From the NCBI GenBank assembly GCA_965262725.1, contig OZ253555.1:2688001-2752000 (forward strand): a DNA stretch of 64,000 bases, read 5' to 3'. Position 1 is the stretch's first letter; each line of letters starts with the position of its first letter. Positions 1 through 40,226 of the stretch are shown piece after piece. Position numbers and translations under genes: made by a program. The notes below the pieces were generated by a model that was not told where the DNA came from, made no database searches, and was given only the letters and a program-made list of their open reading frames with translations. The stretch is from Dehalococcoidia bacterium. Its GTDB lineage: Bacteria > Chloroflexota > Dehalococcoidia > UBA2979.

Positions 1-837
1 GCCGACGCCGGCGGCGCCATTCTGGTACTCCCCTACGACCACGGGCTTGAGCATGGACCGGTCGACTTCCTGGAGCACGAGTGGGGCTCCCGCACGGCGT
101 CCATCTTCGAGCTGTCGAGTCGAACCGCCATCGCGGCGGTCGCGGCCCATCTCGGGCTGGTCGGTCGCTACTACCGGGGGACCGAGCCGAACGTCGGCCT
201 CATCGTCAAGCTGAACGGGAAGACAAGCATCCCGGAGGCATCGGCGCCGCTCTCGCCGCTCACCGGATCCGTCGAGGAGGCCGTCCGCGCGGGCGCCGAC
301 GCCATCGGCTACACGCTGTATGTCGGCTCCGCCGCCCAGGAGCAGGATCTCCGCCAGCTCGCAGACGTCCGGCGCGACTGCGAGCGTCTCGGGATGCCGC
401 TCGTCGTGTGGTCCTATCCCCGCGGCCGGTTCGTCGACGCGGCCGGTGGGCGAGATTCGCTGTACGCCGTCGACTACGCGGCGAGAGTCGCCCTGGAGAT
501 GGGCGCGGACGTCATCAAGATCAACCTCCCGCGGAGACACGATCCCGAGCTCGGCACGCCCCCGTCCCCCTACCTCGAGCTCGAGGCGGACCGCTCGCTC
601 ATGGCGCGGCGGGTCGTCGAGTCGTGTGGCGAGGCCGCCGCGATCTTCTCCGGCGGCTCCCATCGCGACGACGAGCGGTTCCTCGACGACGTGCGGCTCG
701 CGTTCGCCGCGGGAGCCTCGGGCATGATCGCCGGGCGCAACGTCTTCCAGCGCCCGATGGAGGAGGCTGAACAGCTTATCGCGGCGGTGAGCCGCATCGC
801 CCGGGAGGCCGGACCCGGGCGCGACGGGCATCCATAG
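1..837 (+). CDS. Class I (DhnA/archaeal-type) fructose-bisphosphate aldolase family, 5' end cut by window edge
   Basis: Frame is open from base 1: LPYDHGLEHGP, IVKLNGKT, YTLYVGS, WSYPRG, Schiff-base Lys in GADVIKIN, GRNVFQR. Confidence 0.85.
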   Translation, partial: ADAGGAILVLPYDHGLEHGPVDFLEHEWGSRTASIFELSSRTAIAAVAAHLGLVGRYYRGTEPNVGLIVKLNGKTSIPEASAPLSPLTGSVEEAVRAGADAIGYTLYVGSAAQEQDLRQLADVRRDCERLGMPLVVWSYPRGRFVDAAGGRDSLYAVDYAARVALEMGADVIKINLPRRHDPELGTPPSPYLELEADRSLMARRVVESCGEAAAIFSGGSHRDDERFLDDVRLAFAAGASGMIAGRNVFQRPMEEAEQLIAAVSRIAREAGPGRDGHP

Positions 838-9482: not shown

Positions 9483-9497
9483 CCGAGCCTCCCGGCC

Positions 9498-17410: not shown

Positions 17411-17500
17411 GCAGAGGCCGCCCGCGGCGGCCTCCGAGCGGGGCGTCCTCCCGCGGCCGCACGGCGCGGGCGCCGACGCCCGCTCACCGAGGATGCAGCT

Positions 17501-18978: not shown

Positions 18979-19084
18979 TGGCACGTTCCTGAGATCCGCG
19001 TCCGCTCTCCCGCCGCTCCCGAATTCCGTGGAGCGGGCGCGGTATATAGTGCGGCGGTCGCGTGAGGGCGAAGGGGGAACGGCC

Positions 19085-20101: not shown

Positions 20102-20138
20102 GTCGACCGGGTCGCGGATCCAGAGCAGGGGGAGAGCC

Positions 20139-21614: not shown

Positions 21615-21649
21615 CCGCGGGACCCGCGGCCGCCGGGGCGGCCGCCCCG
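21614..21649. terminator. Two adjacent GC palindromes between convergent genes, possible terminator
   Basis: GCCGCGGG-A-CCCGCGGC (21614-21630) and CGGGGCGGCCGCCCCG (21634-21649); no U-tract. Confidence 0.35.
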
Positions 21650-21653
21650 CACC

Positions 21654-22622
21654 CTACGCGCCGGGCGGTGGAGCGATCGCGGCTCCCGCGAGCGCCTCGA
21701 AGTGGCGCACGATCTGCATGTAGTCGGCGCCCGCGGGGAGGGCCTCGCGCGCGCCCGCGAGCAGCTCGCGCGTCGCACCAGCGAGCGGGGCCGGCGTCTC
21801 CGTCTCGCGCGCCAGGTCGACCGCGCAGGCGACGTCCTTCAGCATCAGGTCGAGTGCAAAGCCGGCATCCAGATCACCCGAGAAGACGAAGCGCGGGAAC
21901 TTCTCCTCGGTCGACGAGCTGCGGCCGGTCGAGTGGTTCACCGCCTCGATCACGAGCCTGGGCTCCAGGCCGAACCGCCTCGCCACCAGCGCCGCCTCGG
22001 TGGCTGCGATCATCGCGCAGGCCGATAGGAAGTTGTTGAGCGCCTTCGTGGCATGCCCGGATCCGAGGGCGCCCGTCCGCACGACCGTCCTTCCCACCGC
22101 CCCGAACACGGGCTCGCAGCGATCAACGGCCTCCGGCTCGCCGCCCGCCATGATCGCGAGCGAGCCGGCCTCCGCCCCGCGCACGCCCCCCGACACCGGC
22201 GCATCCACCATCGCCACGCCGAGCGAGGCGACCGCGGCGCCGAGCGTCCGCGTCCCCGACGGGTGCGATGAGCTCATGTCGATGAGGAGGGCACCCCGAG
22301 CCCCCTGCTCCGCCCGATCCGCCCAGCCCGCCGCGAACGAGTCCGCTCCCTCCTCGCCGCCCAGGGCCACCGCATGCACAGCTGCCCCGTCGGGGAGCAT
22401 CGTGATGACGGCGTCGGCCCACGCGGCGAGCGAGGCGAGCGATGCGGCCGCCTCCGCCGGGGGGGAGCGGCGCACGACGGCCCGCGTCACGTCCTCGCGG
22501 GCGTCGTAGACCCTAACGTCGAGGCCCGCCGCGACCAGGTGTCCGGCCATCGGCGCGCCCATGCGGCCGACGCCCACCACCCCCACGCGCCGAAGGGCCG
22601 CGGAGGACCGTGGGGCGCTCAC
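21654..22622 (-). CDS. Beta-hydroxyacid dehydrogenase (3-hydroxyisobutyrate dehydrogenase family)
   Basis: GVGRMGAPMA, DAPVSGG, KALNN, FALDLMLKD. Confidence 0.9.
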   Translation of the reverse strand: MSAPRSSAALRRVGVVGVGRMGAPMAGHLVAAGLDVRVYDAREDVTRAVVRRSPPAEAAASLASLAAWADAVITMLPDGAAVHAVALGGEEGADSFAAGWADRAEQGARGALLIDMSSSHPSGTRTLGAAVASLGVAMVDAPVSGGVRGAEAGSLAIMAGGEPEAVDRCEPVFGAVGRTVVRTGALGSGHATKALNNFLSACAMIAATEAALVARRFGLEPRLVIEAVNHSTGRSSSTEEKFPRFVFSGDLDAGFALDLMLKDVACAVDLARETETPAPLAGATRELLAGAREALPAGADYMQIVRHFEALAGAAIAPPPGA

Positions 22623-23095
22623 GATCCCGCCTCCTGGACCGCATCCCCGCTGTCGCCGGCGTCCCCGATCTCCTCCAGCACCTCGCGCGCCACGCGGAAG
22701 GCGTCGACGCCGGCGGGCACGCCCGCGTAGATCGTCGCCTGCAGCAGCACCTCCTGGATCTCCTCGCGGCTGCAGCCGTTCGCGACGGCACCGCGCGTGT
22801 GCAGGCGCAGCTCGTGCGGACGGTTGAGCGCGGTCAGCATCGCGAGGTTGAGCAGGCTACGCGTTCGGCGCGAGAGCACCGGGCGGGTCCACACCTCGCC
22901 CCAGCAGTATTCCGTCACCAGCTCCTGAAGCGGCGCTGTAAAGGCATCGGCCCCGGCGATCGAGGCCTCGACGTATTCCGCACCGAGCACCGCGCGACGC
23001 ACCTCCAGTCCGCGCGCGAAGCGCGCGCGGCCGCCGCCCAGGACCTCTCCCGCTCCGGCTCCGGCGGCCCCCTCGCTCCCGCTGCTCGCCACCAC
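22619..23095 (-). CDS. Carboxymuconolactone decarboxylase family protein
   Basis: EYCWGEVWTRP, ELRLHTRGA, YAGVPA; RBS GGGAGG. Confidence 0.88.
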   Translation of the reverse strand: MVASSGSEGAAGAGAGEVLGGGRARFARGLEVRRAVLGAEYVEASIAGADAFTAPLQELVTEYCWGEVWTRPVLSRRTRSLLNLAMLTALNRPHELRLHTRGAVANGCSREEIQEVLLQATIYAGVPAGVDAFRVAREVLEEIGDAGDSGDAVQEAGS

Positions 23096-23326
23096 GTCCT
23101 CCCTTCCCGCGGCCAGGCGCCAGGGGGCACCCGCCGGCGGCCATTCTGCGGTCGGCGCGCCCGCGGAGCGAGCCGCTCCGCGTGGCGTCCGCGCACGGCG
23201 ATCCCGTATCGTGTGCGCCCCGACGGGGCCACCCCGCTTTGCGACGGCCACCGCACGCACGGGACGCGCACCACGGTGCCGGGCGCCGCGAGGTGCTCGC
23301 GCTCAAGAGCCCGCGAAAGGAGCCCG

Positions 23327-24223
23327 ATGCCATACGCCACCGCCTCCGACGGCGTCCGCCTCTACTACGAGGAGACAGGCGAGGGCATACCCGTCGTCTT
23401 CGTGCACGAGTTCGCCGGCGACCACCGTAGCTGGGAGCAGCAGGTGCGCCATTTCGGTCGCCGCTACCGGGCGGTCGCCTGCGCGGCGCGCGGTTACCCG
23501 CCCTCAGATGTCCCGGAGGCCCGCGCGAGCTACTCGCAGGAGCGCGCCGTCGACGACGTCCGCGACGTTCTCGATGCGATCGGCGCCGAGCGCGCGCACA
23601 TCGTCGGGCTCTCCATGGGCGGCTACGCGACGCTCGTCTTCGGGCTCACCTACCCCGAGCGCGCGCGCTCGCTCACCGTCGCCGGCGCGGGCTACGGCAG
23701 CACGGCCGACCGCTCCGACTTCGAGCGCGACGTCGAGCAGGTCGCCGAGCGGCTGCTCGCCGAGGGGATCGAGGCTTTCGGGGAGGTCTACACGCGGGGG
23801 CCCACGCGCGTGCAGTTCCGCGACAAGGATCCACGCGGCTGGGAGGAGTTCCGGGCGCAGTTCCGGGCCTCCTCGACCCTCGGCCACGCCAACACGATGC
23901 TCGGCGTGCAGCGCAAGCGCCCCTCCATCCTCGCGCTCGAGGAGAGGCTGCGGGGGCTCACCGTCCCGACCCTGATCGTGACCGGCGACGAGGACGAGCC
24001 GTGCCTCGAGCCCGGGCTCTTCATGAAGCGAACCATCCGCACCTCCGCCCTGGTCGTGTTCCCGCGCTCCGGCCACGCCGTGAACCTTGAGGAGCCGGCG
24101 GCCTTCAACCGCGCGGTCGAGGACTTCCTCGCCGCGGTCGACGCCGGCAGCTGGCGGGAGCGCAACCCGGAGAGCCTCTCGGAGTCCCAGCTGCTCCCCG
24201 CCGGAGAACGCGAGCGTGACTAA
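23327..24223 (+). CDS. Alpha/beta hydrolase with intact triad
   Basis: FVHEFAGD, GLSMGG, GDED, SGHAVNLEEP. Confidence 0.88.
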   Translation: MPYATASDGVRLYYEETGEGIPVVFVHEFAGDHRSWEQQVRHFGRRYRAVACAARGYPPSDVPEARASYSQERAVDDVRDVLDAIGAERAHIVGLSMGGYATLVFGLTYPERARSLTVAGAGYGSTADRSDFERDVEQVAERLLAEGIEAFGEVYTRGPTRVQFRDKDPRGWEEFRAQFRASSTLGHANTMLGVQRKRPSILALEERLRGLTVPTLIVTGDEDEPCLEPGLFMKRTIRTSALVVFPRSGHAVNLEEPAAFNRAVEDFLAAVDAGSWRERNPESLSESQLLPAGERERD

Positions 24224-26678
24224 GGAGGACCCCGCGCCCGGCGCGCTCGCCGGGCTTCGCGTCGTCGAGGTCGGGGAGTGGGTCTCCGCCCCCTTCGCCG
24301 CCAAGCTCTTCGCCGACTTCGGCGCCGACGTGGTGAAGGTGGAACGCCCGGGCCCGGGCGATCCGGCGCGCACCGACGGGCCCTTCCCGGGCGATCGGCC
24401 TGGGCCGGACTCCTCCGGCCTCTTCCTCTACCTCAACACCAACAAGCGCGGCGTCCAGCTCGACCTCGCAGGCGACGCGGGGCGCGCCGCGCTCGACCGG
24501 TTGCTTCAGGACGCCGACCTCCTCATCACGAACCTCCCGCGAGCGAGGCTCGCCGTGGCCGGGCTCGAGCCGGAGGCGCTGCGGGCGCGGCACCCCGGGC
24601 TCCTCGTCACGACGATCACGCCCTTCGGGCTCGACGGCCCCTACGCCGACTACGTCGGAGACGAGCTCGTGACCTACGCGATGGGCGGACTCGCCTACGC
24701 CTCGCCGGGCGTCCCCGACGTCGTCGACGATCCCGAGGCGGAGCCGCCGCTCCATCCGCACACCTACGTGGCCGACACCATCGGCGGGCTCGTCGCCGCG
24801 GTCGCGAGCATGGTGGCGGTGTTCGGGCGAGCGGAGGACGGCGAGGGGGCGCACGTCGACGTGAGCCAGCAGGCCGCCATCACGGCGATGGAGCAGCGCG
24901 ACCTCACGGCGTGGTCCTACGGCGAGATGGTCATCGGCCGGATGCCGACCAGCATCGCGCGGATGCCGAACTACTACCTCCCGTGCCGCGACGGCTACGT
25001 CGCGGTGGCGGCGCCCTGGGACCACCAGTGGACCCGCCTCGTGAAGATGATGGGAAGCCCCGAGTGGGCGTTCTCCGAGCTCTTCTGCGACGACGCCGGG
25101 CGGACGGCGTACTGGGACGCGCTCAAGCTGCTGCTCACCGAGTGGACGATGCAGTACGACGGCGACGAGATCGTCCGCATGGCCAACGAGGCCGGCCTCC
25201 CGTTCTTCGCCTACTACTCCATCGCCGAGATGGCGGAGTCCGAGCACGTCCGCGCGCGCGGGAGCCTCGTCGAGCAGTCGGCCGACAGCCGCACCTTCCG
25301 CATGCCGGGGGCGCCCCTCGCGATGCACGGCACTCCGTGGGCGATCCGGCGCCCGGCGCCCCGCGCCGGCGAGCACACCGCGGAGGTGCTGGCGGAGCTA
25401 GAGACCCGCCCGGCGTCGGTGGCTGAGCGCGCGCACACCCGCGCGGCGCCGCCGAGTCCGCTCCCGCTCGCCGGCATACGCGTGCTCGACTTCGGGCAGG
25501 TGATCGCGATGCCGTTCGGGAGCCAGTGGCTCGCCTGGCTCGGGGCCGAGGTGCTGCTGGTCGAATCGGTGAAGCACATGACGGCACGCGTCACCCCACC
25601 CTACGTCGGAGGCGTCGCGCACCACGACAATTCGGGCCACTTCAACCTGCTCAACGGCTCGAAGAAGAGCCTGCGCATCGACATGGCAACGCCCGAAGGC
25701 CGCGCGCTGCTCAAGCGCATGGTCCCGCTCTGCGACGTGATGATCGACAATTTCAAGACGGGCGTGCTGGAGAAGCTGGGGCTCGGGCCCGATGTCGTGC
25801 GCGAACTCCACCCCGACATCGTGCAGGTCTCGTTCGGAGCGTTCGGGCGCAGCGGTCCGATGCGCACGCAGGGCGGACTCCACTCGGCCGTGAATCTCTT
25901 CTCCGGCGTTGCCGAGGTCACGGGGTACCCGGGCGGGATGCCGCGCATCCTGGGCGGCGTGCTACCCGACCCGATCGCCGGCTCCTACGCCGTCTTCGGG
26001 GCGCTCGCCGCGCTTCGCCACCGCCGCCGAGGAGGGGGCGGTCAGTACATCGACGGCGCGATGTTCGAGGGGATGATCTCGCTCATCCCCCAGGCGGTGA
26101 TCGACGTCACGATGAACGGACGCGCGCTCGACCGCATCGGAAACCGCGACCACCGCAAGGTACCGCACGGCCTCTACCGCGCCGCTGGCCACGACGAGTG
26201 GCTGGCGATCTCCGTCGATCCGGAGGCCTCCGACTCAAGCGGTCTGGATGCGCAGTGGCGCGCGCTCTGCGCCGTGATCGGTTTGGAGGAGCACGACCCG
26301 CTCTTCTCCACGCCCGACGCGCGGCGCGCGAACGAGGACGCACTCGACGCCCGGATCACAGCGTGGACGCGCGAGCGCGACCCGGCCCCGATGGCTGAGC
26401 TGCTGCAGGCCGTGGGTGTGCCTGCCGGGCCTGTGCTGCGCCCCGACCAGCTGCACGAGGATCCACAGCTGCGCGCGCGGGGCTTCATGGTGGAAACGGA
26501 GCACCCGACGGGCGGGCGCCGGCGCCACCCCGGCATCCCCTGGCGCGCCTCCCACCTCGAGCCGAGGTACCGGGCGGCCCCCCTGCTCGGCGAGCACACC
26601 CACGAGGTGCTGACGGGGCTGCTCGGCCTCTCCGAGGCGGAGTACGAGGACCTCGACGCGGCGGGCGTCCTCCGCTAG
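24216..26678 (+). CDS. Fused double-domain family III CoA-transferase (CaiB/BbsEF-like)
   Basis: Two CaiB units: LAGLRVVE..GADVVKVE..NTNKR..VADTIGG and LAGIRVLDF..NGSKKS..LPDPIAG..APLLGEHT. Confidence 0.9.
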   Translation: MTKEDPAPGALAGLRVVEVGEWVSAPFAAKLFADFGADVVKVERPGPGDPARTDGPFPGDRPGPDSSGLFLYLNTNKRGVQLDLAGDAGRAALDRLLQDADLLITNLPRARLAVAGLEPEALRARHPGLLVTTITPFGLDGPYADYVGDELVTYAMGGLAYASPGVPDVVDDPEAEPPLHPHTYVADTIGGLVAAVASMVAVFGRAEDGEGAHVDVSQQAAITAMEQRDLTAWSYGEMVIGRMPTSIARMPNYYLPCRDGYVAVAAPWDHQWTRLVKMMGSPEWAFSELFCDDAGRTAYWDALKLLLTEWTMQYDGDEIVRMANEAGLPFFAYYSIAEMAESEHVRARGSLVEQSADSRTFRMPGAPLAMHGTPWAIRRPAPRAGEHTAEVLAELETRPASVAERAHTRAAPPSPLPLAGIRVLDFGQVIAMPFGSQWLAWLGAEVLLVESVKHMTARVTPPYVGGVAHHDNSGHFNLLNGSKKSLRIDMATPEGRALLKRMVPLCDVMIDNFKTGVLEKLGLGPDVVRELHPDIVQVSFGAFGRSGPMRTQGGLHSAVNLFSGVAEVTGYPGGMPRILGGVLPDPIAGSYAVFGALAALRHRRRGGGGQYIDGAMFEGMISLIPQAVIDVTMNGRALDRIGNRDHRKVPHGLYRAAGHDEWLAISVDPEASDSSGLDAQWRALCAVIGLEEHDPLFSTPDARRANEDALDARITAWTRERDPAPMAELLQAVGVPAGPVLRPDQLHEDPQLRARGFMVETEHPTGGRRRHPGIPWRASHLEPRYRAAPLLGEHTHEVLTGLLGLSEAEYEDLDAAGVLR

Positions 26679-26774
26679 GACCCGCCGGGAGCGCGGAACC
26701 GGCGGCCATACGCGAGCTCGTGCCCGAGCAGCTCCCTGCTGAACGCTCCGATCTCGTCGCGCACCCGCCGGAAC

Positions 26775-26872
26775 ACGGGCGTGACGCCCGTCCCGCGCCA
26801 GCCGCCCCGGCGCTGCGGTAGAGTCCCTCGGGTCGCCCGCGGCAACGCGAGCGCCGGGCGATCGCCCGGCGC
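26775..26872 (+). promoter_or_regulatory. Promoter and structured 5' leader of the acyl-CoA dehydrogenase operon
   Basis: Inverted repeat ACGGGCGT-G-ACGCCCGT (26775-26791), -10 TAGAGT (26819-26824), CGCG-GCAA-CGCG, perfect 22-bp palindrome 26851-26872 just before RBS GGGAGG. Confidence 0.5.
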
Positions 26873-26889
26873 AGCCGGGAGGAACAGCC

Positions 26890-28095
26890 ATGGACTTCGC
26901 GCTCGACGCCGAGCAGGAGGCGTTCCGCTCCGAACTCTGTGGGTTCCTCTCCTCCGAGCTCAGCGACGACGTGCGCGCACGCCACCGCGACCCGCGCGAG
27001 TGGGACGGCTGGGAGGCGACCTTTGCCGACGAGTTCCGCCGGCGCCTCGGCGCCCGCGGCTTCATCGGCGCCACCTGGCCCGCGGAGTACGGCGGCGACG
27101 GTCGCGACGCCAGGGAGCGCGTCATCTTCGCGGAGGAGATGGAGTACCACGACGCGCCCGCCTTCGACCGCTCCGTCACCTACGTCCCGGACGCGATCCG
27201 TCAGTTCGGGAGCGAGGCGCAGAAGAGCGAGTTCCTCCCGCGCCTCGCGCGCGGCGAGTGCACGTTCTTCCTCGGCTACAGCGAGCCCGACGCCGGATCG
27301 GACCTCGCGAGTCTCCAGACCCGCGCCGAGGCGCGGGGCGACACCTTCGTCCTCACGGGCCAGAAGGCATACTCCTCCGGCGCCGACCGCGCCGACTACG
27401 GCTGGGTCGCGGCACGGACCGATCCGGACGCCCCCAAGCACCGCGGCATCTCGCTCTTCATCGTCGATATGGCGAGCCCGGGCATCGAGATCACCCGCCA
27501 CGAAACGACGGCGGGGTGGGAGCACCATTCCGTCGCCTTCGACTCGGTCGAGGTGCCGCGATCGGCGCTCGTGGGTGAGCTCAACGGGGGCTGGCGCGTG
27601 ATTATGGGCGCCATCGACACCGAGCGCGCCTCACTGGCCGCTCCCGGCCTCGTCCGCGCGCAGCTCGACCGGCTCATCGAGCACTGCCGCCAGACGCCTG
27701 CGGAGGCGACGGGGGACGGCGGCGGCGGGGGCGGGGGTGCGCTCCTCGACGACCCCGTGGTGGCGGATCGCCTCGCGCGGCTCGCGATCGAGGCCGACGC
27801 CGCCCAGCTCATCTCCTACTGGGTCGCCTCGCTGATCGCGGGCGGCGAGAGGCCCCAGCACGAGGCCTCCCTCGCACTCCTCGTCAAGCGCGAGACGGCA
27901 CGCGCGCTCGACGTGGCGACGCTCGAGTTGCTGGGGGCCGGCGGCGCCCTCCGGGCGGAGGCGCCGGGGGCGCCGCTCGGAGGCTCCGTCGTGCGCGAGT
28001 ACCTCGATCGCCTCTACTTCCACTTCGCGGCGGGGGGCTTCGACATCACACGTAACGTGATCGCGACGCGGGGCCTGGGGCTGCCGCGGGGCTAG
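26890..28095 (+). CDS. Acyl-CoA dehydrogenase (probable catalytic subunit of a heteromeric pair)
   Basis: WPAEYGG, GYSEPDAGSDLASL, GQK, KHRGISLF, GELNGGW, DTER, RNVIATRGLGLPR. Confidence 0.92.
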   Translation: MDFALDAEQEAFRSELCGFLSSELSDDVRARHRDPREWDGWEATFADEFRRRLGARGFIGATWPAEYGGDGRDARERVIFAEEMEYHDAPAFDRSVTYVPDAIRQFGSEAQKSEFLPRLARGECTFFLGYSEPDAGSDLASLQTRAEARGDTFVLTGQKAYSSGADRADYGWVAARTDPDAPKHRGISLFIVDMASPGIEITRHETTAGWEHHSVAFDSVEVPRSALVGELNGGWRVIMGAIDTERASLAAPGLVRAQLDRLIEHCRQTPAEATGDGGGGGGGALLDDPVVADRLARLAIEADAAQLISYWVASLIAGGERPQHEASLALLVKRETARALDVATLELLGAGGALRAEAPGAPLGGSVVREYLDRLYFHFAAGGFDITRNVIATRGLGLPRG

Positions 28096-28119
28096 CCGCG
28101 ACCGGCGAGGGGCGGGCCG

Positions 28120-29262
28120 ATGGATCTGGTGACGACCGAGGAGCAGCGCCTGCTGCGCGACTCGGCCCTCCTGTTCGCGCGCGAACGGATGGGGCAAGAG
28201 CGGGCCCGCACGCTCGAGCAGCGCGCAGCCGCGGGCGACCACGCCCACGATGTCGAGCTCACCTCCGAGCTCGCGGCGCTCGGCTGGAGTGGCGCCGCGC
28301 TTCCGGCCGTGCACGGGGGCGGCGGCTTCGGGCTGCTCGAACTCGCGCTCCTGATCGAGGCCTGCGGAACGGCGCCCCTCCCCACGACGCTCTTCGGAAG
28401 CGTCGTCGAGGCGGGTCTCCTGCTCGCGGCAGCGGGGAGCGAGGAGCAGCGCGCGCACTGGCTGCCGCGGATCGCAACCGGCGAGGCGCTGCTCGCGGTG
28501 GCGCTGCTAGAGGAGGGAGCAAGACTCGGCGAGCGCGAGATCCAGACGCGGGCCGTGCCCCGGACGGGCGGCGGCTACCGGATCGAGGGCTCGAAGGTGC
28601 TGGTCCGCGACGCGGGCGCCGCCGACGCGCTCGTGGTCGCGACCCGCGATGGCACCGCCGTCACCCTGCTGCTCGTCGAGCGCGGGACGCCGGGGCTCGA
28701 CGTGCGGCCGCAGCCGGCCGCCGGGGGGGAGCCCCTCTTCTCGGTTCACCTCGACGGCGTCGGCGTCGGCGAGGAGGCCGTGATCGGAGCTCCGGGCGCC
28801 GGATGGCCGCACGTCGAGCGGCTGCTGGCACGGGGCGCCGCCCTCAAGGCGGCGGAGCTCGTCGGGATCGGGCAGGCGGCGCTCGATCTCACTCTCGCCT
28901 ACGCCCGGGAGCGGACGCAGTTCGGGCGCCCGATCGGCTCCTTCCAGGCGGTGCACCACCACTGCGCGGACATCTACCGCGAGGTCGTCGCGTGCCGGCT
29001 TCTCGCCTACCGCGCCGCGTGGTCGCTCGATCGAATGGAAGGCGATCCAGCCGCTTCGGAGGTGCGCCGCGCCGTCGCCACCGCCAAGGCGAAGGCGAGC
29101 GAGGCGATACCGTGGGCGACACGCGTCGCGCACCAGGTGCACGGAGGCGTCGGGTACTACCGCGACTATCCCCTGGAGATCTTCACCCGGCGAGCGATCG
29201 CCGCGGCGGCGGCCTACGGCGATGCGCGCTACCATCGGCGGCGGCTCGCCGGGGCGCTCTAG
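28120..29262 (+). CDS. Acyl-CoA dehydrogenase (partner subunit)
   Basis: RTQFGRPIGSFQAV, QVHGGVGY; lacks the SEPxAGSD motif. Confidence 0.9.
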   Translation: MDLVTTEEQRLLRDSALLFARERMGQERARTLEQRAAAGDHAHDVELTSELAALGWSGAALPAVHGGGGFGLLELALLIEACGTAPLPTTLFGSVVEAGLLLAAAGSEEQRAHWLPRIATGEALLAVALLEEGARLGEREIQTRAVPRTGGGYRIEGSKVLVRDAGAADALVVATRDGTAVTLLLVERGTPGLDVRPQPAAGGEPLFSVHLDGVGVGEEAVIGAPGAGWPHVERLLARGAALKAAELVGIGQAALDLTLAYARERTQFGRPIGSFQAVHHHCADIYREVVACRLLAYRAAWSLDRMEGDPAASEVRRAVATAKAKASEAIPWATRVAHQVHGGVGYYRDYPLEIFTRRAIAAAAAYGDARYHRRRLAGAL

Positions 29263-29285
29263 CGGCCCCCGGCGCAGGGGGGACG

Positions 29286-30101
29286 ATGGGCTACGAATAC
29301 CTGCGGGTCGAGCAGACGGACGACGGCGTCGTCACGGTCTGGATCGACGACCCCGAGAACAACAACGCCGTCAACTTCGTCATGAACCGCGAGCTCGCCG
29401 ACGAGATCGCGCGCATCGGCGAGGATGACTCGGCGAGGGTGCTTGTGTTGACCGGAACCGGCCGCATCTTCTGCTCGGGCGGGAACATCGGGCAGATGAC
29501 GGCGCAGGGTCGGTCGCTCGAGCCCGACGAGAAGACGCTCAACGAGCGGCTCCACCCTGCGCAGTCCGACATCCGCCGCGTCACGGTCGCGCTGCGGCGC
29601 ATGTCGAAGCCCGCGATCGCGGCCGTGAACGGCCCGGCCGTCGGCTCGGGCGTGGGGCTCGCCGCGGGCTGCGACGTGAGACTGGCGGCCCGGGAGGCAC
29701 GCTTCGGCTGGGTCTTCACGCGCCGTGGGATCCTCCCGGACGATGGGAGCCTCAAGCTCGTGCTCGACATCCTCGGCTACGCCCGCACCTTCGAATGGGG
29801 GGTGCGCGGCAGCCGCCTCGAGGCCGAGGAGGCGCTGAGCTGGGGCTTCGTCTCGGAGGTCGTCGAGCGGGAGGAGCTGCTCCCGCGCGCCCACGCCCTC
29901 GCGCGCGAGATCATCGCCTCCGTACCGCCGCTGACGGCCCGGCTCTTCAAGCTCGCGCTGGTCGATGCGCTCGATCGCCCGCTGGAAGAGGCGATCCGCT
30001 TCACCGAACGCGCGCAGCAGCTCGCCCGAGAGAGCGAGGATCACACCGAGGCGCTCCGCGCGTACGCGGAGCGCCGGCCGCCCACGTGGTCGGGGCGCTG
30101 A
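29286..30101 (+). CDS. Crotonase family, PaaG/isomerase-like
   Basis: FCSGGN, AVNGPAVGSG, FTRRGILPDDG, RRPPTWSGR. Confidence 0.88.
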   Translation: MGYEYLRVEQTDDGVVTVWIDDPENNNAVNFVMNRELADEIARIGEDDSARVLVLTGTGRIFCSGGNIGQMTAQGRSLEPDEKTLNERLHPAQSDIRRVTVALRRMSKPAIAAVNGPAVGSGVGLAAGCDVRLAAREARFGWVFTRRGILPDDGSLKLVLDILGYARTFEWGVRGSRLEAEEALSWGFVSEVVEREELLPRAHALAREIIASVPPLTARLFKLALVDALDRPLEEAIRFTERAQQLARESEDHTEALRAYAERRPPTWSGR

Positions 30102-30102
30102 G

Positions 30103-31275
30103 GTGCCCGGCGACGCCTCCGTCAAGCGGGCGATCGAGCCCGCGAGTTTCCCCTGGATGGATGCCTCGCGCTACGCCTTCTGCCTCGCCATGGAGGCCGG
30201 TGGCTCCACCTGGCTCTCTGGCCACACCGCGGCCCGCTACGAGCCGGGGCGCGACGCGGTCACCGCCGACGGTGACGTGGAGGCGCAGGGGCGCGTCGTC
30301 TACGAGAAGGCGCGCGCGATCCTGGAGACCGCCGGCCTCGGATTCGGGGACGTGGCCCAGAGCATTGAGTACCTCGCCCCCGGCGCGCTCGGAGCCGGCG
30401 ACGCGGAGTGCCTGGCGCGTCTCCGGGCCGAGTACTTCGGTGTCAACCGCCCGGCTCTCTCGACCGTCGCCGTCAACTCGCTGCTGCGCCCCGAGGCGCT
30501 CGTCGAGATCGAACTGGTGGCTCGCGAGGCCCCGAACGACACCGTCGAGGCCGCCGGAACGATCGCCCGGCGCATGGGCGATCTGCTGGTGATCCCGGCG
30601 CTCGACGCTCCGGGCGCGGATCTCGCCTCGCAGGCCCGGGCGATCTACGACCGCGCAGCAGCCGTGCTCGCCGCCGCGGGCCTCGGCTGGGAGCACGTGG
30701 TCAAGACCACCGACTTCGTGGCCGTCTCGGCGCTCCGCGACTACCGCGTCACTGCCGAGGTGCGCCGGGAGCGCTTTGGTGGTCGGGACGCCGTCGACTT
30801 CCCCGCCTCAACCGGCATCATCATGGAGCGCCTCGCGACCCCGGGAGCGCTCATCCAGGTGGAGTTCATCGCCTCCACGACGCCGCGCGCGGGCGTGGAG
30901 GCGCCGTGGCCACACCACCCGCGTCTCACCTATGCGCCGGCCGTGCGAGCAGGCCGCCTGCTCTTCGTCTCCGGGATGGCGGCATTCAACCCGGAGAGTA
31001 ACGCCACCGAGCACGTCGGCGACGTCGTCGCGCAGTCGCGTTATGTCTACGAGAACATGGCCCGCCTGATGGAGGCGGCGGGCGGATCGCTCGAGAGCAT
31101 CATCAAGACCGTCGAGTACGTCGCTCCCGCCGCCCGAGAGCGCTACCCGCGCACCGGCCGCGTGCGCACGGACCTCTTCGACCGCCCCTACCCGGCCTCC
31201 ACCGGCGTGATCTGCGAGCGCCTGATCCGCTCTGACCTCCTGATCGAGGTCGACGCGATCGCGGTGCTGGAGTGA
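30103..31275 (+). CDS. Triple tandem Rid (YjgF/YER057c/UK114) domain protein
   Basis: Three units ending RPALSTV..LVEIELVA, FPASTG..LIQVEFIA, YPASTG..LIEVDAIA. Confidence 0.85.
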   Translation: MPGDASVKRAIEPASFPWMDASRYAFCLAMEAGGSTWLSGHTAARYEPGRDAVTADGDVEAQGRVVYEKARAILETAGLGFGDVAQSIEYLAPGALGAGDAECLARLRAEYFGVNRPALSTVAVNSLLRPEALVEIELVAREAPNDTVEAAGTIARRMGDLLVIPALDAPGADLASQARAIYDRAAAVLAAAGLGWEHVVKTTDFVAVSALRDYRVTAEVRRERFGGRDAVDFPASTGIIMERLATPGALIQVEFIASTTPRAGVEAPWPHHPRLTYAPAVRAGRLLFVSGMAAFNPESNATEHVGDVVAQSRYVYENMARLMEAAGGSLESIIKTVEYVAPAARERYPRTGRVRTDLFDRPYPASTGVICERLIRSDLLIEVDAIAVLE

Positions 31276-31802
31276 GCGACGCGTCCCCCGGGGGCTCGCT
31301 GCTCACCGACGAGCTCCGTGGCTGGATCGGGCGCGAGGCCTCCTACGAGGCGCCGGAGGAGCTGGGGCGCGCCGCCATCCGCTACTACGCGCTCGCGCTC
31401 TCCGACGACAATCCGCTCTACCGCGACGAGGCCCACGCCCGGGGGACGCGGTTCGGCGGCGTGATCGCGCCGCCGACGCTCGTGGTCGAGACCAACCAGT
31501 ACGCCGACCTGCCGCTCCGTCCCGAGGATGGCTACAACGGCCACGCGTGGGAGGGCCTGCCGCTCCCGGTTCCGTGCACGCTGGTACGCGGCGGCAACCA
31601 GTACGAGCTGCTCAGGCCCGTGCGGCCGGACGACCGCCTCTCCGTGCGCTGGCGCATCGAGGAGATCACCGAGCGGCAGGGCCGAGCCGGCCCCATGCTT
31701 GTGCTGGTCGCACGCGCCGAGTACCGGAACCAGCAGCGCGAGCTGCTCGCCACCAACCTCGACACCACCATCTTCCTGCCCGCCCCCGATCGGGGATCGT
31801 GA
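31272..31802 (+). CDS. MaoC N-terminal/FAS1-like hotdog subunit
   Basis: AIRYYA, DDNPLYRD, GVIAPPT, LRPVRPDD. Confidence 0.85.
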   Translation: MSDASPGGSLLTDELRGWIGREASYEAPEELGRAAIRYYALALSDDNPLYRDEAHARGTRFGGVIAPPTLVVETNQYADLPLRPEDGYNGHAWEGLPLPVPCTLVRGGNQYELLRPVRPDDRLSVRWRIEEITERQGRAGPMLVLVARAEYRNQQRELLATNLDTTIFLPAPDRGS

Positions 31803-32230
31803 TGCGTTTCGAGGCGGTCGAGACCGGTCAGGAGCTGCCCGAACTCCGCGTTACGCTCACGCACGAGCTCCTCGCCGCTTACGCCGGCGCGACCTGGGAT
31901 TTCCACCGCTACCACTACGACGCCGATTTCGCCCGCGAGACGGCCGGCGCGCCCGACGCCTTCGTGGACGGGCAGATGCTGGGCGCCCTGCTCGCGCGCC
32001 AGTTGATGGCCTGGTCGGCACCCGAGGGGTGGGTGCGAAGCCTCGCGCTTCGTTACCGCTCGATGTCGTTCCCCGGCGAGACGCTCGTCTGTCGGGGGCG
32101 CGTGAGTTCGACACGCGTCGAGAGCGGGAGCGGCCTGGTGACGTGCGATCTCGCCGTCGTGACGCTCGACGGCCGAGACGTCGCCGCGCCGGCCTCGGCC
32201 ACAGTCGAACTGCCCGCGGCCACAGACTAG
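31802..32230 (+). CDS. MaoC dehydratase catalytic subunit
   Basis: YAGATWDFHRYHYD (D-x4-H), FVDGQMLG, FPGETL; TGATG overlap. Confidence 0.85.
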   Translation: MRFEAVETGQELPELRVTLTHELLAAYAGATWDFHRYHYDADFARETAGAPDAFVDGQMLGALLARQLMAWSAPEGWVRSLALRYRSMSFPGETLVCRGRVSSTRVESGSGLVTCDLAVVTLDGRDVAAPASATVELPAATD

Positions 32231-32245
32231 CGGAGGAGGCACGGG

Positions 32246-33043
32246 ATGACGGACGGGGCTGAGGCGGCCGGTGAGGCCGTCATCTTCGAGACCGACGGAC
32301 ACGTCGCGCGCATCACGCTCAACCGCCCGCACGCGATGAATGCCCTCGACACGGCAGCGCGGGAGCGTCTGCTGCAGGCGATGGCGCGCGTCCACGACGA
32401 CCCCGAGATCCGCGTCGGTATCCTCACCGGCGCCGGCGGGCGTGCCTTCAGCGCGGGCGCGGACCTCAAGGAGTGGGCGCAACCGGACTCGCCGGGCTTC
32501 TCCGGGGGCTCCGCCCACGATGCCCTTTCCAAGGAGCCGGGCGACGAGTTCTTCACGATCCGCGTCGCGAAGCCCCTCATCGCCGCCATCGACGGCTACT
32601 GCCTCGCCGGAGGGCTCGAGCTCGCACTCTCCTGCGATCTGCGCATTGCGACGCCCTCGTCCTCCTTCGGCCTTCCGGAGGTGCAGCGCGGGTTCCCGCC
32701 GGGCGGGGGCGGCGTGCAGCGGCTGGTGCGCGCGATCTCGCTCGCGCCAGCGATGGAGATGCTCCTGACAGGCGAGCGCATCGACGCGGAGACGGCGCTG
32801 CGCTGGGGTCTCGTCTCGCGCGTCGTCCCGCGCGAGGACTTGCTCGCAACCGCGACCCGCCTCGCCGAGCGCATTGCGGCGAACGCGCCGCTGGCCACGC
32901 GCGTCGTGAAGGAACTCGCGCTCGCGAGCCCCGATCAGTCGCTTGGGCAGGCGCTCCAGCTCGGTAGCGTCTTGCGCTGGATCGTGGGACAGACACCGGA
33001 GGCGCAGGAAGGCCCGCGCGCCTTCGCGCGGGGCGACGGCTGA
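32246..33043 (+). CDS. Enoyl-CoA hydratase with both catalytic Glu
   Basis: AFSAGADLKE, AGGLELALSCD, FGLPEV. Confidence 0.92.
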   Translation: MTDGAEAAGEAVIFETDGHVARITLNRPHAMNALDTAARERLLQAMARVHDDPEIRVGILTGAGGRAFSAGADLKEWAQPDSPGFSGGSAHDALSKEPGDEFFTIRVAKPLIAAIDGYCLAGGLELALSCDLRIATPSSSFGLPEVQRGFPPGGGGVQRLVRAISLAPAMEMLLTGERIDAETALRWGLVSRVVPREDLLATATRLAERIAANAPLATRVVKELALASPDQSLGQALQLGSVLRWIVGQTPEAQEGPRAFARGDG

Positions 33044-33124
33044 GCCGGTCCGGCCCGATCATGGCGGCGCCGCCCGCCGCTGCAGCGTGTTCGAGTCGTG
33101 TGAGGGCGAGGGGAGCTCGGAAGC

Positions 33125-33550
33125 GTGGACACTATCGATCTGGGAAGCCTGAACTACCTGGCGATCGTCGTCGGCGTGGTCATCAACCAGGCAATTGGGA
33201 TGGCCTGGTACACCATCCTCGGCAGGTACTGGATGGCCGAGACGGGGTTAACGCACGAGGACATGGAGTCGATGAAGGGGACGCCCCGGCAGTGGTACCC
33301 CTACGTCATCGCCATCGCCTCCGCCTTCGTCTTCGTCCTGGGGCTCGCCGTCCTGATTCAGGCTCTCGGGGCGGAGGGGCCGATCGACGGCCTCGTGGTC
33401 GGTCTCCTGGCTGCGGTCGCGTTCATCCTCTCGACGAGCGCGATGAACTACGCCTTCGAGGGACGCAGCCTCTGCCTCTACGGCATCAACAACGGCTACC
33501 ACGTTCTGGCGCTCGCCGTGATCGGGGTCGTGCTCGGCGCCTGGCAGTAA
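33125..33550 (+). CDS. DUF1761 family membrane protein
   Basis: NYLAIVV, GMAWY, FEGRSL..INNGY; four TM helices. Confidence 0.8.
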   Translation: MDTIDLGSLNYLAIVVGVVINQAIGMAWYTILGRYWMAETGLTHEDMESMKGTPRQWYPYVIAIASAFVFVLGLAVLIQALGAEGPIDGLVVGLLAAVAFILSTSAMNYAFEGRSLCLYGINNGYHVLALAVIGVVLGAWQ

Positions 33551-33668
33551 CGGGCCCGCCGACGCGCCGCAGGAGCGAATCCGGTCGATGGTCCGGGTCG
33601 GACGACCGACACGCGGGCGGCCTCGGCACGATCGGGAGCGCGGGCACGGGGCGAGGCGGACGTCCGGT

Positions 33669-34190
33669 CTAGTCCTGCTCAGCCTTTCCCGCTCCCGGCC
33701 GGCCTCCGTCGCCGGCTCCCGCCGGCAGGGCGAAGCGCTGCGCCAGCACGCGCTCGCGGAAATCGAAGATCGCGGCCAGCCGCGGAGCGACGCCGCGCGC
33801 ATTCACCAGCGCGCCGAGCGGCCCGCCCGGGAGCGAGTAGTGGACGAGGTCCCGCACCTCGAGGCCGCCCGGGACCTCGCGGAAGTGGTGCTGGTGGTGC
33901 CAGAAGCGATAGGGGCCGAGTCGCTGCTCATCGACGAAGAGGTAGGGCTCCGACACGTGCGTGATCTCGGTGACCCAGTGTGCGCGCCAGCCCGGGAACG
34001 GCTCGATCCGGTACTCGATCAGAAGCCCAGGGTAGACCTCCTTCGGGAGGGCGGAGAGCACCTCGAAGTGCATGTCGGGCGGGGTGATAACGGTGAGGTT
34101 GCGGGGGTCGGAGAAGAACGCCCACGCCTCCTCGAACGTCGTCGGCAGCACCTGGCGTCGGTCGATCCGATGCAGCCGCATCCCCAGCAT
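33669..34190 (-). CDS. SRPBCC/START ligand-binding domain protein
   Basis: WAFFSDPRNLTVITPP, WVTEIT, FVDEQRLGPYRFWHHQH, IFDFR. Confidence 0.85.
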   Translation of the reverse strand: MLGMRLHRIDRRQVLPTTFEEAWAFFSDPRNLTVITPPDMHFEVLSALPKEVYPGLLIEYRIEPFPGWRAHWVTEITHVSEPYLFVDEQRLGPYRFWHHQHHFREVPGGLEVRDLVHYSLPGGPLGALVNARGVAPRLAAIFDFRERVLAQRFALPAGAGDGGRPGAGKAEQD

Positions 34191-34254
34191 CCCTCCCCGC
34201 CTCGGTCGTGGCGCCAGTATCGCGCGGCGGCGCCGCCGAGGGCGAGCGGCGTAG

Positions 34255-34698
34255 CTACGAGAGGACGTGGTCGAGGGAGAGCGGCCCCGCGCCGCCGAGG
34301 GCGACCGTGATCGCCGCCGCCAGCAGGATCACGTCCAGCTCATAGCCCTGGACCGAGCCTCCCTGGAAGGGGTGCCCGAGCTTGAACTTCGAGACGTAGG
34401 CCGCCACCAGCATCATCGCGGCCAGCGGGATCGCCGCCCAGTGGGCGAGCAGGCCCACCATGAGCATCGCCCCGCCCACGAGCTCCATCGTGGCGACCAG
34501 CCTCGCCTGCTGCTGGGCGAACGGGATGCCGAGCTCGGCGAACCACGCGCCCGTGCTTCCGATACCGCGTCGCCACTTGCCGAGACCGGCATCGACGAAG
34601 ACGAGGCCGAGCGCGACGCGGAGCGGCACCAGCGCCCACTCCCGGATGTCGGCGCTCCATGGATCGACGAGGAACTCCACGCGGCCTCCCCCCGGCAC
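34255..34698 (-). CDS. DoxX family membrane protein
   Basis: LRVALGLVF..GLGK, ELVGGAMLMVG, GYE, GAGPLSLD. Confidence 0.88.
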   Translation of the reverse strand: MPGGGRVEFLVDPWSADIREWALVPLRVALGLVFVDAGLGKWRRGIGSTGAWFAELGIPFAQQQARLVATMELVGGAMLMVGLLAHWAAIPLAAMMLVAAYVSKFKLGHPFQGGSVQGYELDVILLAAAITVALGGAGPLSLDHVLS

Positions 34699-34702
34699 CG
34701 GC

Positions 34703-35164
34703 TCAGCGCGGGCGGTGCGGCAACTCGACGACGGCCGTCCCCTGGAGCGGCCGCTCGCCGCGCTCGTTCTCGAGATAGACGTCGAGCGTCACGCGGCCGA
34801 CGCCAGCCTCGTCCGAGGCATCGGTCACAAGCGCCATCAGCTTGAGGCGGTCGCCGTGCAACACGGGGCGGCGGAAGTTCGCGTCGAGCGTGCGCAGCCG
34901 GCCGGCGGATCCCGCCCAGTCGGTGACGAGCCTGGTGATGATCGAGAGGCTCATCACTCCCGGAACGATGGGACGTTCGAGCCCGAGCGCCTGCGCGCCC
35001 GCGGCATCGGAGAAGCGCCCGTCCTCCTCGTCCAGCGCGGCGTTGCCCCGCGAGACCGAGAGGTAGGTCGCGACCAGCTCCGGCCGGGCGACGTAGGCCT
35101 CCTCAAACTCGTCGCCGAGTTCGGCGTCGTCGAAGTAACGCTGCCCCGAGCCCTCGCCGGTCAC
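34703..35164 (-). CDS. MaoC-like hotdog protein with atypical catalytic motif
   Basis: YFDDAELGD, PIVPG, VTDWAG, NFRRPVLHGD, NERGE. Confidence 0.75.
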   Translation of the reverse strand: MTGEGSGQRYFDDAELGDEFEEAYVARPELVATYLSVSRGNAALDEEDGRFSDAAGAQALGLERPIVPGVMSLSIITRLVTDWAGSAGRLRTLDANFRRPVLHGDRLKLMALVTDASDEAGVGRVTLDVYLENERGERPLQGTAVVELPHRPR

Positions 35165-35610: not shown

Positions 35611-35649
35611 AGTCTCCTCCTTACCGCCGTCCGCGCCGGAGGCGGGCGG

Positions 35650-36339: not shown

Positions 36340-36436
36340 CGCGCGGCCCCGTTCGCTCGCGGCCCGTTCCGATGCGGTGCGCTCCTGCGCGGGTCCGCGA
36401 GCGATTCTCCGCGCGCCCCTTCGCGGCCGTCAACGC

Positions 36437-39195: not shown

Positions 39196-39232
39196 CGCTC
39201 CGACGGGAACATGCGATGCCGGCCGCCGGGGT

Positions 39233-40168: not shown

Positions 40169-40226
40169 CGCCGTGCCCGCCCGACCGGCGGAAGCGGCAC
40201 GGGCCGCCTCCCCTCGACCGGGCGCA

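Follow-up and report, generated by a model that had tools for sequence, protein, structure and literature searches.

An Arg-less triple Rid protein and a variant MaoC hydratase pair form a conserved gene module within a predicted CoA-dependent operon of a Dehalococcoidia bacterium

We analyzed a 64,000-nt stretch of the genome of a Dehalococcoidia bacterium (assembly GCA_965262725.1, contig OZ253555.1, positions 2,688,001 to 2,752,000, forward strand; hereafter the window, in which all coordinates below are given), with a focus on nine genes at 23327-33043 on the + strand. Among other acyl-CoA enzymes, these genes encode a single-chain protein with three Rid domains (triple Rid) and two hotdog-fold proteins of the MaoC type, MaoCa and MaoCb. 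The evolutionarily fixed core of this locus is a triple Rid that lacks the RidA arginine, followed by a heteromeric MaoC hydratase. What is new here is this fixed Rid-MaoC module, which points to an enzyme step without description. The window has a G+C content of 71-76%, the host genome consists of 3.67 Mb on a single contig, and the nearest relatives of the locus are in Dehalococcoidia/Chloroflexi metagenome bins.

The triple Rid gene and the MaoC pair are a fixed module

Triple-Rid loci were collected by scanning one genome per species, and the best 80 of 255 relatives were kept. We placed the window proteins on these 80 loci by tblastn and counted those 75 in which the sequence continues for at least 1100 nt beyond the Rid gene. 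A MaoCa gene directly follows the triple Rid gene in 62 of the 75, and in 59 both MaoCa and MaoCb are directly downstream on the same strand. In two others MaoCa is adjacent but MaoCb is two genes further on, the inserted genes being a CoA-transferase pair (L004) or an acyl-CoA dehydrogenase (ACAD) pair (L052), and in one the contig ends after the adjacent MaoCa. Both MaoC genes lie elsewhere in the locus in 5/75. Counted over 10 kb, both are found in 67 of the 75 loci. As for the five loci with a short flank, the start of MaoCa is visible in three.

We built a maximum-likelihood tree from 80 Rid sequences, that of the window and those of 79 loci (L062, whose match is shorter than 330 residues, was left out). 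On this tree, the label "no MaoCb" needs three changes, in an Actinomycetota clade of five, in Entotheonella and in one bin. The Rid-MaoC pairing is kept in the deepest Chloroflexota branches, at 32-41% identity, and the loci with the pair carry six phylum labels (Chloroflexota, Pseudomonadota, Binatota, Methylomirabilota, Myxococcota, and Actinomycetota). Apart from scattered other cases, only L001, L002, L003, and L005 combine the Rid with the transferase, ACAD pair, and crotonases seen in the window. An earlier, sequence-only reading of the window had proposed that the Rid protein belongs functionally with all of these genes, a claim open to refutation by Rid homologs that occur independently of them. 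Neighborhood analysis divides this claim: most Rid loci do without the transferase, ACAD pair, and crotonases, but the MaoC pair is tied to the Rid.

The Rid-linked MaoC pair has a variant active-site motif

The two MaoC subunits differ in their catalytic residues. In the family alignment, MaoCa has an invariant Asp45 and a Tyr50 in place of the catalytic His, and it is predicted to be noncatalytic, like partners such as HadA. In MaoCb, all 25 aligned rows have Asp34 and His39, and these two residues align with the D..H of 5i7n and 4v12. MaoCb thus has the Asp and His that a hydratase-2 requires, and is predicted to be the catalytic subunit of a heteromeric R-type hydratase.

This arrangement resembles ChsH1-ChsH2 and HadAB/HadBC, which are likewise encoded by adjacent genes for a noncatalytic N-type hotdog subunit (His replaced) and a subunit with an Asp/His dyad. 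ChsH and Had chains are the best PDB relatives of MaoCa and MaoCb; the matches of MaoCb to 5i7n, 4v12, and the HadB and ChsH chains range from 1e-8 to 1.5e-6. In contrast to these systems, both subunits score far below the NCBIfam cut-offs (HadA, 34.8 bits versus 180; HadB, 38.2 versus 203), the window has no DUF35 or Ltp2 partner, with the triple Rid in that place, and the motif of MaoCb is different. While the canonical hydratase-2 motif is S/G-G-D-x-N-P-I-H, the MaoCb of the window reads A-T-W-D-F-H-R-Y-H-Y-D and its family A-T-W-D-[WF]-H-R-x-H-Y-D, with D-G-Q replacing the usual H-G. Of the 80 Rid loci, 66 contain an open reading frame (ORF) with T-W-D-x-x-R-x-H, and across the 4522 ORFs of all 80 loci a regular expression of the canonical S-G-D-x-N-P-I-H type finds no match.

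As a control, we ran the MaoCb profile (A3) on 200 other genomes of the phylum and inspected the 29 returned loci. The residue before the Asp is small in 27 of them, 20 of which read D-x-N-P-I-H, while one reads T-W-D and one is without the Asp. None of the 29 has a Rid match within 1.5 kb, and removal of one locus, which comes from a genome flagged as unpublished (G173), leaves these figures at 26/28 and 0/28. The A3 profile was set aside as a marker of the subfamily: it is unspecific, with matches in 50 of 201 genomes of the phylum that are mostly ordinary S-G-D-x-N-P-I-H hydratases. The linked subfamily was therefore defined by its motif instead. Judged by that motif, Rid-linked MaoCb proteins form a distinct putative subfamily with an altered active site. 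The only MaoCb-like gene with T-W-D-T-H-R-T-H and no Rid match 1.5 kb upstream is at L088 (G195:C28), the rest of that genome not having been searched. A complex prediction for MaoCa, MaoCb, and the triple Rid with their own alignments returned a score of 0.00 and gives no indication on binding in either direction.

None of the three domains of the triple Rid has the RidA arginine

The protein of 390 aa consists of three tandem Rid domains in one chain, which is the 3x-Rid architecture. A word-indexed search with it gave 194 matches, of which the 120 listed are 354 to 427 aa long and 38-99% identical; an exhaustive search gave 110 cluster representatives at E up to 1e-30. In the ESM Atlas, its only clusters are named "RidA family protein". 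With TIGR00004 (RidA), it scores 103.9 bits, marginally under the cut-off of 106.25, and its domain 1 matches AmnE (6izh) at 2.7e-8.

Arg105 of Escherichia coli TdcF/RidA is essential for imine hydrolysis, and Rid subfamilies without this Arg "presumably serve other functions" (Niehaus et al. 2015, PMC4433059). The equivalent column holds an Arg in none of our 80 sequences in any of the three domains; it is occupied by Val/Leu/Ile in domain 1, Ala/Ser in domain 2, and Ser/Ala in domain 3, where P-A-S aligns with the P-A-R of PH0854 and Cth-2968. Other positions are well kept. The Glu-equivalent is present in 78/80 sequences in domain 1 and 76/80 in domain 3 (it is a Gln in 68/80 in domain 2), the Tyr-equivalent in 77/80 in both domain 1 and domain 3, and a family-specific Arg in each domain (R108, R221, and R355) in 80/80. 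Domain 2 has degenerated, and part of it is deleted in the clade to which the triple Rid of the window belongs. Elsewhere in this genome is a second triple Rid (G000:C1, ~3005577-3007172; L082:826-2421), with three Ribonuc_L-PSP stretches at 4.2e-69. This protein, 27% identical to that of the operon, has P-A-R in all three domains and is thus of the canonical "3x-RidA" type. The Arg loss in the operon Rid is therefore specific.

Within the open-access literature, we found the term "3x-RidA" only in Niehaus et al. 2015 (PMC4433059), whose passages on these fusions describe them as presumed covalent trimers with no assigned function, for example EF_0115. The operon Rid is similar in its three Rid domains in one chain. 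It differs in two respects: in those passages the fusions are filed under the Arg-bearing RidA imine deaminases, whereas the operon Rid has no such Arg in any domain, and the main-text passages give no gene context for them, whereas the operon Rid has a conserved MaoC context.

An AlphaFold2 model of the triple Rid, from a run with a 21-row alignment, has a pLDDT of 93, a pTM of 0.92, and three repeats of the beta-alpha pattern. Its best solved matches are the chorismatases 4bps, 5a3k, and 5ag3 (Foldseek E 5.6e-19). By VIA, residues 33..388 of the model superpose on 9..340 or 18..344 of the chorismatase chain, with Z scores of 27.3-27.6 and a root-mean-square deviation of 3.0-3.2 Å over 288-290 residues at 21-23% identity; single-domain Rid chains reach a Z of ~19. 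The modeled protein would thus be, like FkbO, Hyg5, and XanB2, a single-chain Rid-like pseudo-trimer. However, it is ~50 residues longer, belongs to another sequence family, and is found among genes of acyl-CoA catabolism rather than chorismate-derived natural products. The match to TIGR04444 (chorismatase) amounts to no more than 17.4 bits, with a cut-off of 325, at E 0.0021 and over residues 229-326, which places the triple Rid outside the chorismatase sequence family.

Chorismatase chemistry is the protonation of a vinyl-ether C=C, and in Hyg5 it is Glu-334 that protonates the enolpyruvyl methylene, according to the relevant passages of PMC7170507. The triple Rid model has a Glu at the matching offset for this acidic residue of the last strand: from the offset of the range ends (388 to 340), as opposed to a residue alignment, we infer that Glu382, present in 76/80 sequences, may correspond to Glu-334. 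The sequence-only reading had suggested enol-ether hydrolysis as one possible Rid step, and the likeness of the model to chorismatases supplies an unexpected structural precedent for it.

Organization of the operon

The nine genes are co-directional and tightly packed, and all of them were recovered as ORFs with Pfam and NCBIfam matches, just as they had been read from the letters. They are listed here with the adjoining genes that may be linked to them.

21654-22622 (-), HIBADH-like beta-hydroxyacid dehydrogenase, divergent upstream, possibly linked (NAD_binding_2/11)
22619-23260 (-), CMD-family gene, divergent upstream, possibly linked to the operon (CMD, 5.8e-24)
23327-24223 (+), alpha/beta-fold hydrolase, PcaD/MenH/BphD-like, no equivalog (Pfam Abhydrolase_1, 2e-17)
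24216-26678 (+), fused double family III CoA-transferase, BbsE-like N half and BbsF-like C half (CoA_transf_3, 1.3e-183, two stretches)
26890-28095 (+), acyl-CoA dehydrogenase of the large-subunit type, PimC/ChsE4/Tcur3483-like (three Pfam ACAD domains)
28120-29262 (+), acyl-CoA dehydrogenase of the small-subunit type, PimD-like (Pfam)
29286-30101 (+), isomerase-type (PaaG-like) crotonase (ECH_1, 2.6e-45)
30103-31275 (+), Arg-less triple Rid (3x-Rid), 390 aa, predicted single-chain pseudo-trimer (Ribonuc_L-PSP, three stretches)
31272-31802 (+), MaoCa, HadA/ChsH-like N-type hotdog subunit (FAS1_DH_region, 1.9e-22)
31799-32230 (+), MaoCb, HadB-like hotdog subunit (MaoC_dehydratas, 5e-07)
32246-33043 (+), classical crotonase-type enoyl-CoA hydratase (ECH_1, 2.3e-57)
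33125-33550 (+), DUF1761 small membrane protein, possible last gene of the operon (PF08570, 3.6e-25)

The sequence-only reading had the hydrolase overlapping the transferase. This holds, with an overlap of 8 nt between the likely true transferase start, a GTG at 24216, and the hydrolase stop at 24221-24223. The longest ORF begins with a TTG at 24087, which we set aside because the GTG is the most likely start. For the hydrolase, the ATG at 23327 fits the domain and the codon-position GC. A 537-aa hydrolase ORF from 22610 was rejected, as its upstream part has no coding signal in frame and the CMD gene lies there on the opposite strand. A gap of 211 nt (26679-26889) separates the CoA-transferase from the first ACAD. 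From 26890 on, the spacings are 24, 23, and 1 nt, two 4-nt overlaps, and 15 nt, in agreement with the claimed maximum of 24 nt. The two overlaps are GTGA start/stop overlaps, at the triple Rid/MaoCa and MaoCa/MaoCb junctions.

The gene order recurs in four Dehalococcoidia/Chloroflexi loci (L001, L002, L003, and L005, of which L003 and L005 end at a contig boundary), with 77-94% protein identity, so that the arrangement is not due to chance. The DUF1761 gene is in the same place in L002, L003, and L005 (77-80% identity), and the HIBADH-like ortholog is syntenic in L001 and L002. None of the nine genes reaches an NCBIfam equivalog cut-off, and therefore no described pathway is matched, which bears out the description of the cluster as uncharacterized. 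Searched with Pfam and NCBIfam, the nine genes contain no thiolase or 3-hydroxyacyl-CoA dehydrogenase domain, and no aminotransferase, amine oxidase, or known ammonia-lyase. From its gene content, 23327-33043 is predicted to be one operon for CoA-dependent breakdown of an organic acid.

No match was obtained with Rfam on 20000-37000 or with a promoter/terminator scan on 22500-33700, the 211-nt gap before the first ACAD included, or with a plasmid collection searched in protein mode. The stretch is near-identical in 20 sequencing runs from eight studies, with no RNA run among the listed holders.

Enzymes flanking the Rid-MaoC core resemble parts of several described routes

The sequence-only reading drew analogies to BbsEF for the transferase and to ChsE for the ACADs, and the best PDB hits agree with both. 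The C half of the transferase has its best PDB match in the benzylsuccinate CoA-transferase chain 9fn0_B (3.8e-58). The N half matches 9fn0_A at 4.9e-43, although 4ed9 scores above 9fn0_A when this half is searched alone. The double protein looks like a fused BbsEF-type heteromer, and in the Chloroflexi locus L004 two separate genes replace it. Both halves had been said to retain their Asp motif. For the N half (V-A-D-T-I-G-G), this was confirmed by alignment, its Asp aligning with that of 4ed9 and 3ubm, whereas the BbsE chain 9fn0_A has Ala; in the C half, L-P-D-P-I-A-G was read by eye in the translation only. In the bbs operon, an ACAD and a crotonase follow the transferase genes. The operon of the window departs from bbs in its fused transferase halves, the Asp kept in the N half, the absence of BbsCD or BbsAB equivalents, and the added Rid and MaoC pair.

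The adjacent large- and small-subunit ACAD genes resemble PimCD, ChsE4-ChsE5, and Tcur3481-3483, which are their best NCBIfam and PDB relatives. The first is closest to large subunits of alpha2beta2 ACADs (Tcur3483, 6wy9_A, 4.4e-62; 4x28_A, 7.2e-59), and the second matches the small subunits 6wy8_A (3.5e-30) and 4x28_D (1.2e-28), with generic ACADs scoring slightly higher. However, both are far under the equivalog cut-offs (TIGR03204 PimC, 173.7 bits versus 623.85; TIGR03203 PimD, 151 versus 652.7), and the heteromer is putative.

The best PDB match of the first crotonase is E. coli PaaG (4fzw_C, 1.3e-38). As in PaaG, Gly replaces the first hydratase Glu and the single Asp of the P-D motif is in common; the PaaG hidden Markov model TIGR02280 gives 142.9 bits, below its cut-off of 345.15. 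In contrast to the paa pathway, the operon has no PaaABCDE and no aldehyde dehydrogenase domain. The MaoC domain of PaaZ hydrolyzes a cyclic enol ether, which is the kind of bond cleaved by the Rid fold in chorismatase. For the second crotonase, the best NCBIfam model is EchA19 (235 bits versus a cut-off of 400), and both residues that we take to be the hydratase Glu pair are present by eye in the translation. The best NCBIfam model of the hydrolase, TIGR02427 (PcaD), gives 98.7 bits, under its cut-off of 255.85.

The module is surrounded by varying acyl-CoA genes

De novo clustering and targeted tblastn over the Rid loci showed a changing set of other genes, almost all of them for acyl-CoA enzymes. 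The most recurrent are an ACAD orthogroup (39 loci by clustering; 32 at ≥40% identity to the L027 copy) and an AMP-forming acyl-CoA ligase (36 loci by clustering, 29 by tblastn). F420/FMN luciferase-like (LLM) oxidoreductases are found in 21 loci, crotonases in 16, family III CoA-transferases in 15, and an Old-Yellow-Enzyme (OYE) reductase in 15-16. Parts of LIV-type ABC systems recur, the binding protein in 20 loci. A 535-aa alpha/beta hydrolase gene is directly upstream of the Rid in ten loci, and an Ltp-type thiolase-like gene is beside it in 11. As for a nitrogen context, amidohydrolases adjoin only a few loci: in L041 and L055 one is next to the Rid, in the window one lies 1.7 kb upstream, and amidohydrolase queries match only three loci each.

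In Bradyrhizobium cenepequi (L048), the module lies within a pim-like cluster in the order PimC, PimD, third ACAD, Rid, MaoCa, MaoCb, FadB-type hydratase/dehydrogenase, thiolase, and ligase; a gene for an IclR regulator is close by. PimC of this locus scores 673.1 bits, above its cut-off of 623.85, while PimD (547.7) is below its own of 652.7. The lack of a thiolase and a 3-hydroxyacyl-CoA dehydrogenase, claimed for the run of the window, is correct for its nine genes and is no general feature of the module, since this locus has both.

The metagenomic protein P0171 (1091 aa) joins an NDP-forming acyl-CoA synthetase (CoA_binding_2, Succ_CoA_lig, and ATP-grasp_5 domains) to a triple Rid that is 42% identical to that of the window. 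It is a singleton on one 8.4-kb contig; whether the fusion is real or two gene calls were merged, the genes are adjacent. Two further architectures were seen, six Rid stretches in one chain (P0203, 803 aa) and a C-terminal part of MmgE/PrpD joined to a Rid part (P0257, 565 aa). MmgE/PrpD genes are also present near the module in L004 and in the window at 53431-54981.

Other genes in the window

Upstream of the operon, a block at 15215-21614 (+) encodes a MaoC-like protein, an LLM monooxygenase, a CoA-transferase A subunit of the PcaI/ScoA type (226.6 bits versus a cut-off of 128.5), an F420-type LLM, and a TRZ/ATZ-like amidohydrolase that is syntenic in L002 (93%). This block may feed the operon. 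Downstream, a second and different MaoC pair at 34703-35610 (-), with 34255-34698 (-) and 35650-36276 (-), comprises a FAS1_DH_region protein and a MaoC protein in which no D..H motif was seen by eye; a DoxX gene and a PHP-family gene lie beside it. In L001, L002, L003, and L005, these genes keep their synteny with the operon (69-95% identity).

The acyl-CoA synthetase at 36437-38065 (-) was rejected as a pathway member. It is MenE (TIGR01923, 355 bits versus a cut-off of 330) of a men cluster, and therefore the operon ends at 33043 or at the DUF1761 gene. The menaquinone genes extend over 36437-45387 (-). In addition to menE, they comprise a crotonase, a thiamine-diphosphate (TPP) enzyme, and a chorismate-binding enzyme, in the positions of menB, menD, and menF, respectively. 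CbiM/CbiQ metal-uptake genes are found at 7645-9992 (-), beside a Fur-family regulator.

Discussion

How might a triple Rid serve a hydratase? To our knowledge, all characterized catalytic members of the Rid fold (RidA, RutC, 2-aminomuconate deaminase, and chorismatase) turn an X-C=C group, where X is N or O, into a carbonyl by protonating carbon; this generalization is our own. From it and from the conserved gene context, we infer a physical or catalytic cooperation between the Rid and the MaoC pair, together with the reaction and the substrate set out here. Our tentatively preferred reading is that the triple Rid is a dedicated catalytic partner, acting on a CoA-bound enol, enol-ether, or enamine intermediate that is made or consumed by the MaoC pair. 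In such a scheme, the hydrolase would open an ester or lactone, the BbsEF-like transferase would form the CoA thioester, and the PimCD/ChsE-like ACAD pair would insert a 2,3 double bond, which the PaaG-type crotonase could move. The MaoC pair would add or remove water, and the triple Rid would protonate the CoA-bound intermediate at an electron-rich C=C, be it an enol, an enol ether, or an enamine, to give a carbonyl, using the putative general-acid Glu kept in its domains 1 and 3. Collapse to a carbonyl at this last step would explain a run without an NAD-dependent 3-hydroxyacyl-CoA dehydrogenase, and the loss of the RidA Arg, which binds the substrate carboxylate, fits a thioester substrate. 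The intermediate would probably have a heteroatom-substituted or enolic C=C. Our guess for the operon substrate is a substituted or alicyclic dicarboxylate, because of the BbsEF-, PimCD-, and PcaD-like parts and the pim-like Bradyrhizobium locus.

A more far-reaching version seems rather doubtful to us. It would make the triple Rid and the variant MaoC heterodimer an unrecognized three-protein acyl-CoA enzyme, with the Rid fold acting for the first time on a CoA thioester and converting a heteroatom-substituted or enolic enoyl-CoA to an oxo product (or cleaving it) without NAD. The module would then be widespread and horizontally mobile, and would offer branched, alicyclic, and heteroatom-bearing acids another route than the hydratase/dehydrogenase steps of beta-oxidation.

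Several observations weigh against a dedicated catalytic step of the Rid in concert with the MaoC pair. Eight of the 75 loci have a triple Rid and neither MaoC gene, so that the Rid can work without the hydratase. The Actinomycetota clade L058, L059, L065, L066, and L045 has no MaoC pair, and an F420-type LLM gene is directly upstream of its triple Rids (TIGR03617-like, 208.6 bits versus a cut-off of 278). Many of the proteobacterial neighbor copies are 60-90% identical and are therefore kin rather than independent cases. Since the Bradyrhizobium locus has a 3-hydroxyacyl-CoA dehydrogenase and a thiolase, replacement of the dehydrogenase by the Rid is not general. A MaoC hydratase alone could hydrolyze a 3-heteroatom enoyl-CoA, which would make a Rid step chemically unnecessary in the simplest scheme. 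Finally, the putative substrate class is drawn from similarity below threshold (PimC 173.7 and PimD 151 bits in the window), and the Glu382/Glu334 correspondence from range ends, not from a residue alignment.

It is possible, although we consider it unlikely, that the triple Rid is instead a noncatalytic partner of the MaoC pair, with a role as scaffold, in substrate delivery, or in regulation, and that the chemistry is an ordinary R-hydration. A comparable role toward thiolase-like enzymes is played by DUF35 domains in the pathways for steroids and benzylsuccinate. The strict Rid-MaoC adjacency with overlapping codons would suit such a partner, as would the loss of the RidA catalytic Arg in all domains, the degenerate and, in the clade of the window, partly deleted domain 2, and the Ltp-type thiolase-like genes that adjoin the Rid in 11 loci. 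However, Glu and Tyr are near-invariant in two pseudo-sites and R108, R221, and R355 are present throughout, which suggests a ligand site under selection, and in eight loci a Rid stands without a MaoC pair.

Somewhat less likely still is a nitrogen substrate; the sequence-only reading had suggested a bulky or N-containing acid. A 3-amino-2-enoyl-CoA would arise from the ACAD, or MaoCb would act as an ammonia-lyase, and the Rid would hydrolyze the enamine/imine-CoA to 3-oxoacyl-CoA and ammonia, as a thioester counterpart of RutC or AmnE chemistry. Characterized Rid enzymes do act on enamines and imines, as stated in the passages on them in PMC4433059. The match of domain 1 to AmnE, the amidohydrolases beside the Rid in L041 and L055 and upstream in the window, and the loss of a carboxylate-binding Arg, expected for a thioester, all agree with this possibility. 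So do the LIV-type binding proteins of 20 loci, but LIV-type systems carry non-nitrogen acids too. Moreover, the operon encodes no aminotransferase, amine oxidase, or known ammonia-lyase, and the amidohydrolase queries match three loci each.

We regard it as improbable that the operon is a diverged copy of a described route (bbs, pim, the lower paa pathway, or chs) in which the Rid is incidental. The best PDB hits (BbsEF, ChsE4/Tcur3483, and PaaG), the PimC/PimD-like ACADs, and the pim-like cluster around the Bradyrhizobium module could be read in this way. Against it, no operon gene reaches an equivalog cut-off, and equivalents of BbsCD/BbsAB, PaaABCDE/PaaZ, Ltp2, and DUF35 are absent from the operon by Pfam. 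We know of no Rid protein in the bbs, pim, paa, or chs pathways. A Rid-MaoC module was not found in the open-access literature, as searched in main texts (supplements of Rid and RB-TnSeq papers could hold context tables), and the main text of an RB-TnSeq dicarboxylate preprint contains no RidA or MaoC term.

Finally, an ordinary RidA-type damage-control deaminase that merely happens to be located in the operon is highly improbable, despite the assignment of all three domains to the Rid family by Pfam and NCBIfam and the near-threshold TIGR00004 score: in line with the sequence-only reading, which had seen more in this Rid than a stray housekeeping RidA, the imine-hydrolysis Arg (as given in passages of PMC4433059) is found in 0/80 sequences at each of the three positions, a different triple RidA of the same genome does have P-A-R in each domain, and synteny with acyl-CoA enzymes, and with a specific MaoC pair in particular, is kept across phyla.

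A fixed partnership with a distinctive hydratase pair gives the Arg-less triple Rids a concrete, testable setting in acyl-CoA catabolism. Rid proteins are among the most widespread protein families, with few known functions. Neither the Arg-less Rid subfamilies nor the fused triple forms have an assigned role in the passages of PMC4433059 that deal with them. The module also marks a MaoC subfamily with an altered active-site motif, and it may be the source of a new enzyme for thioesters of the enol, enol-ether, or enamine type. Among its carriers are Chloroflexota associated with sponges and the ocean, Acidimicrobiia, and many Proteobacteria of soil and freshwater, so that the step may be of importance for how recalcitrant organic acids are turned over.

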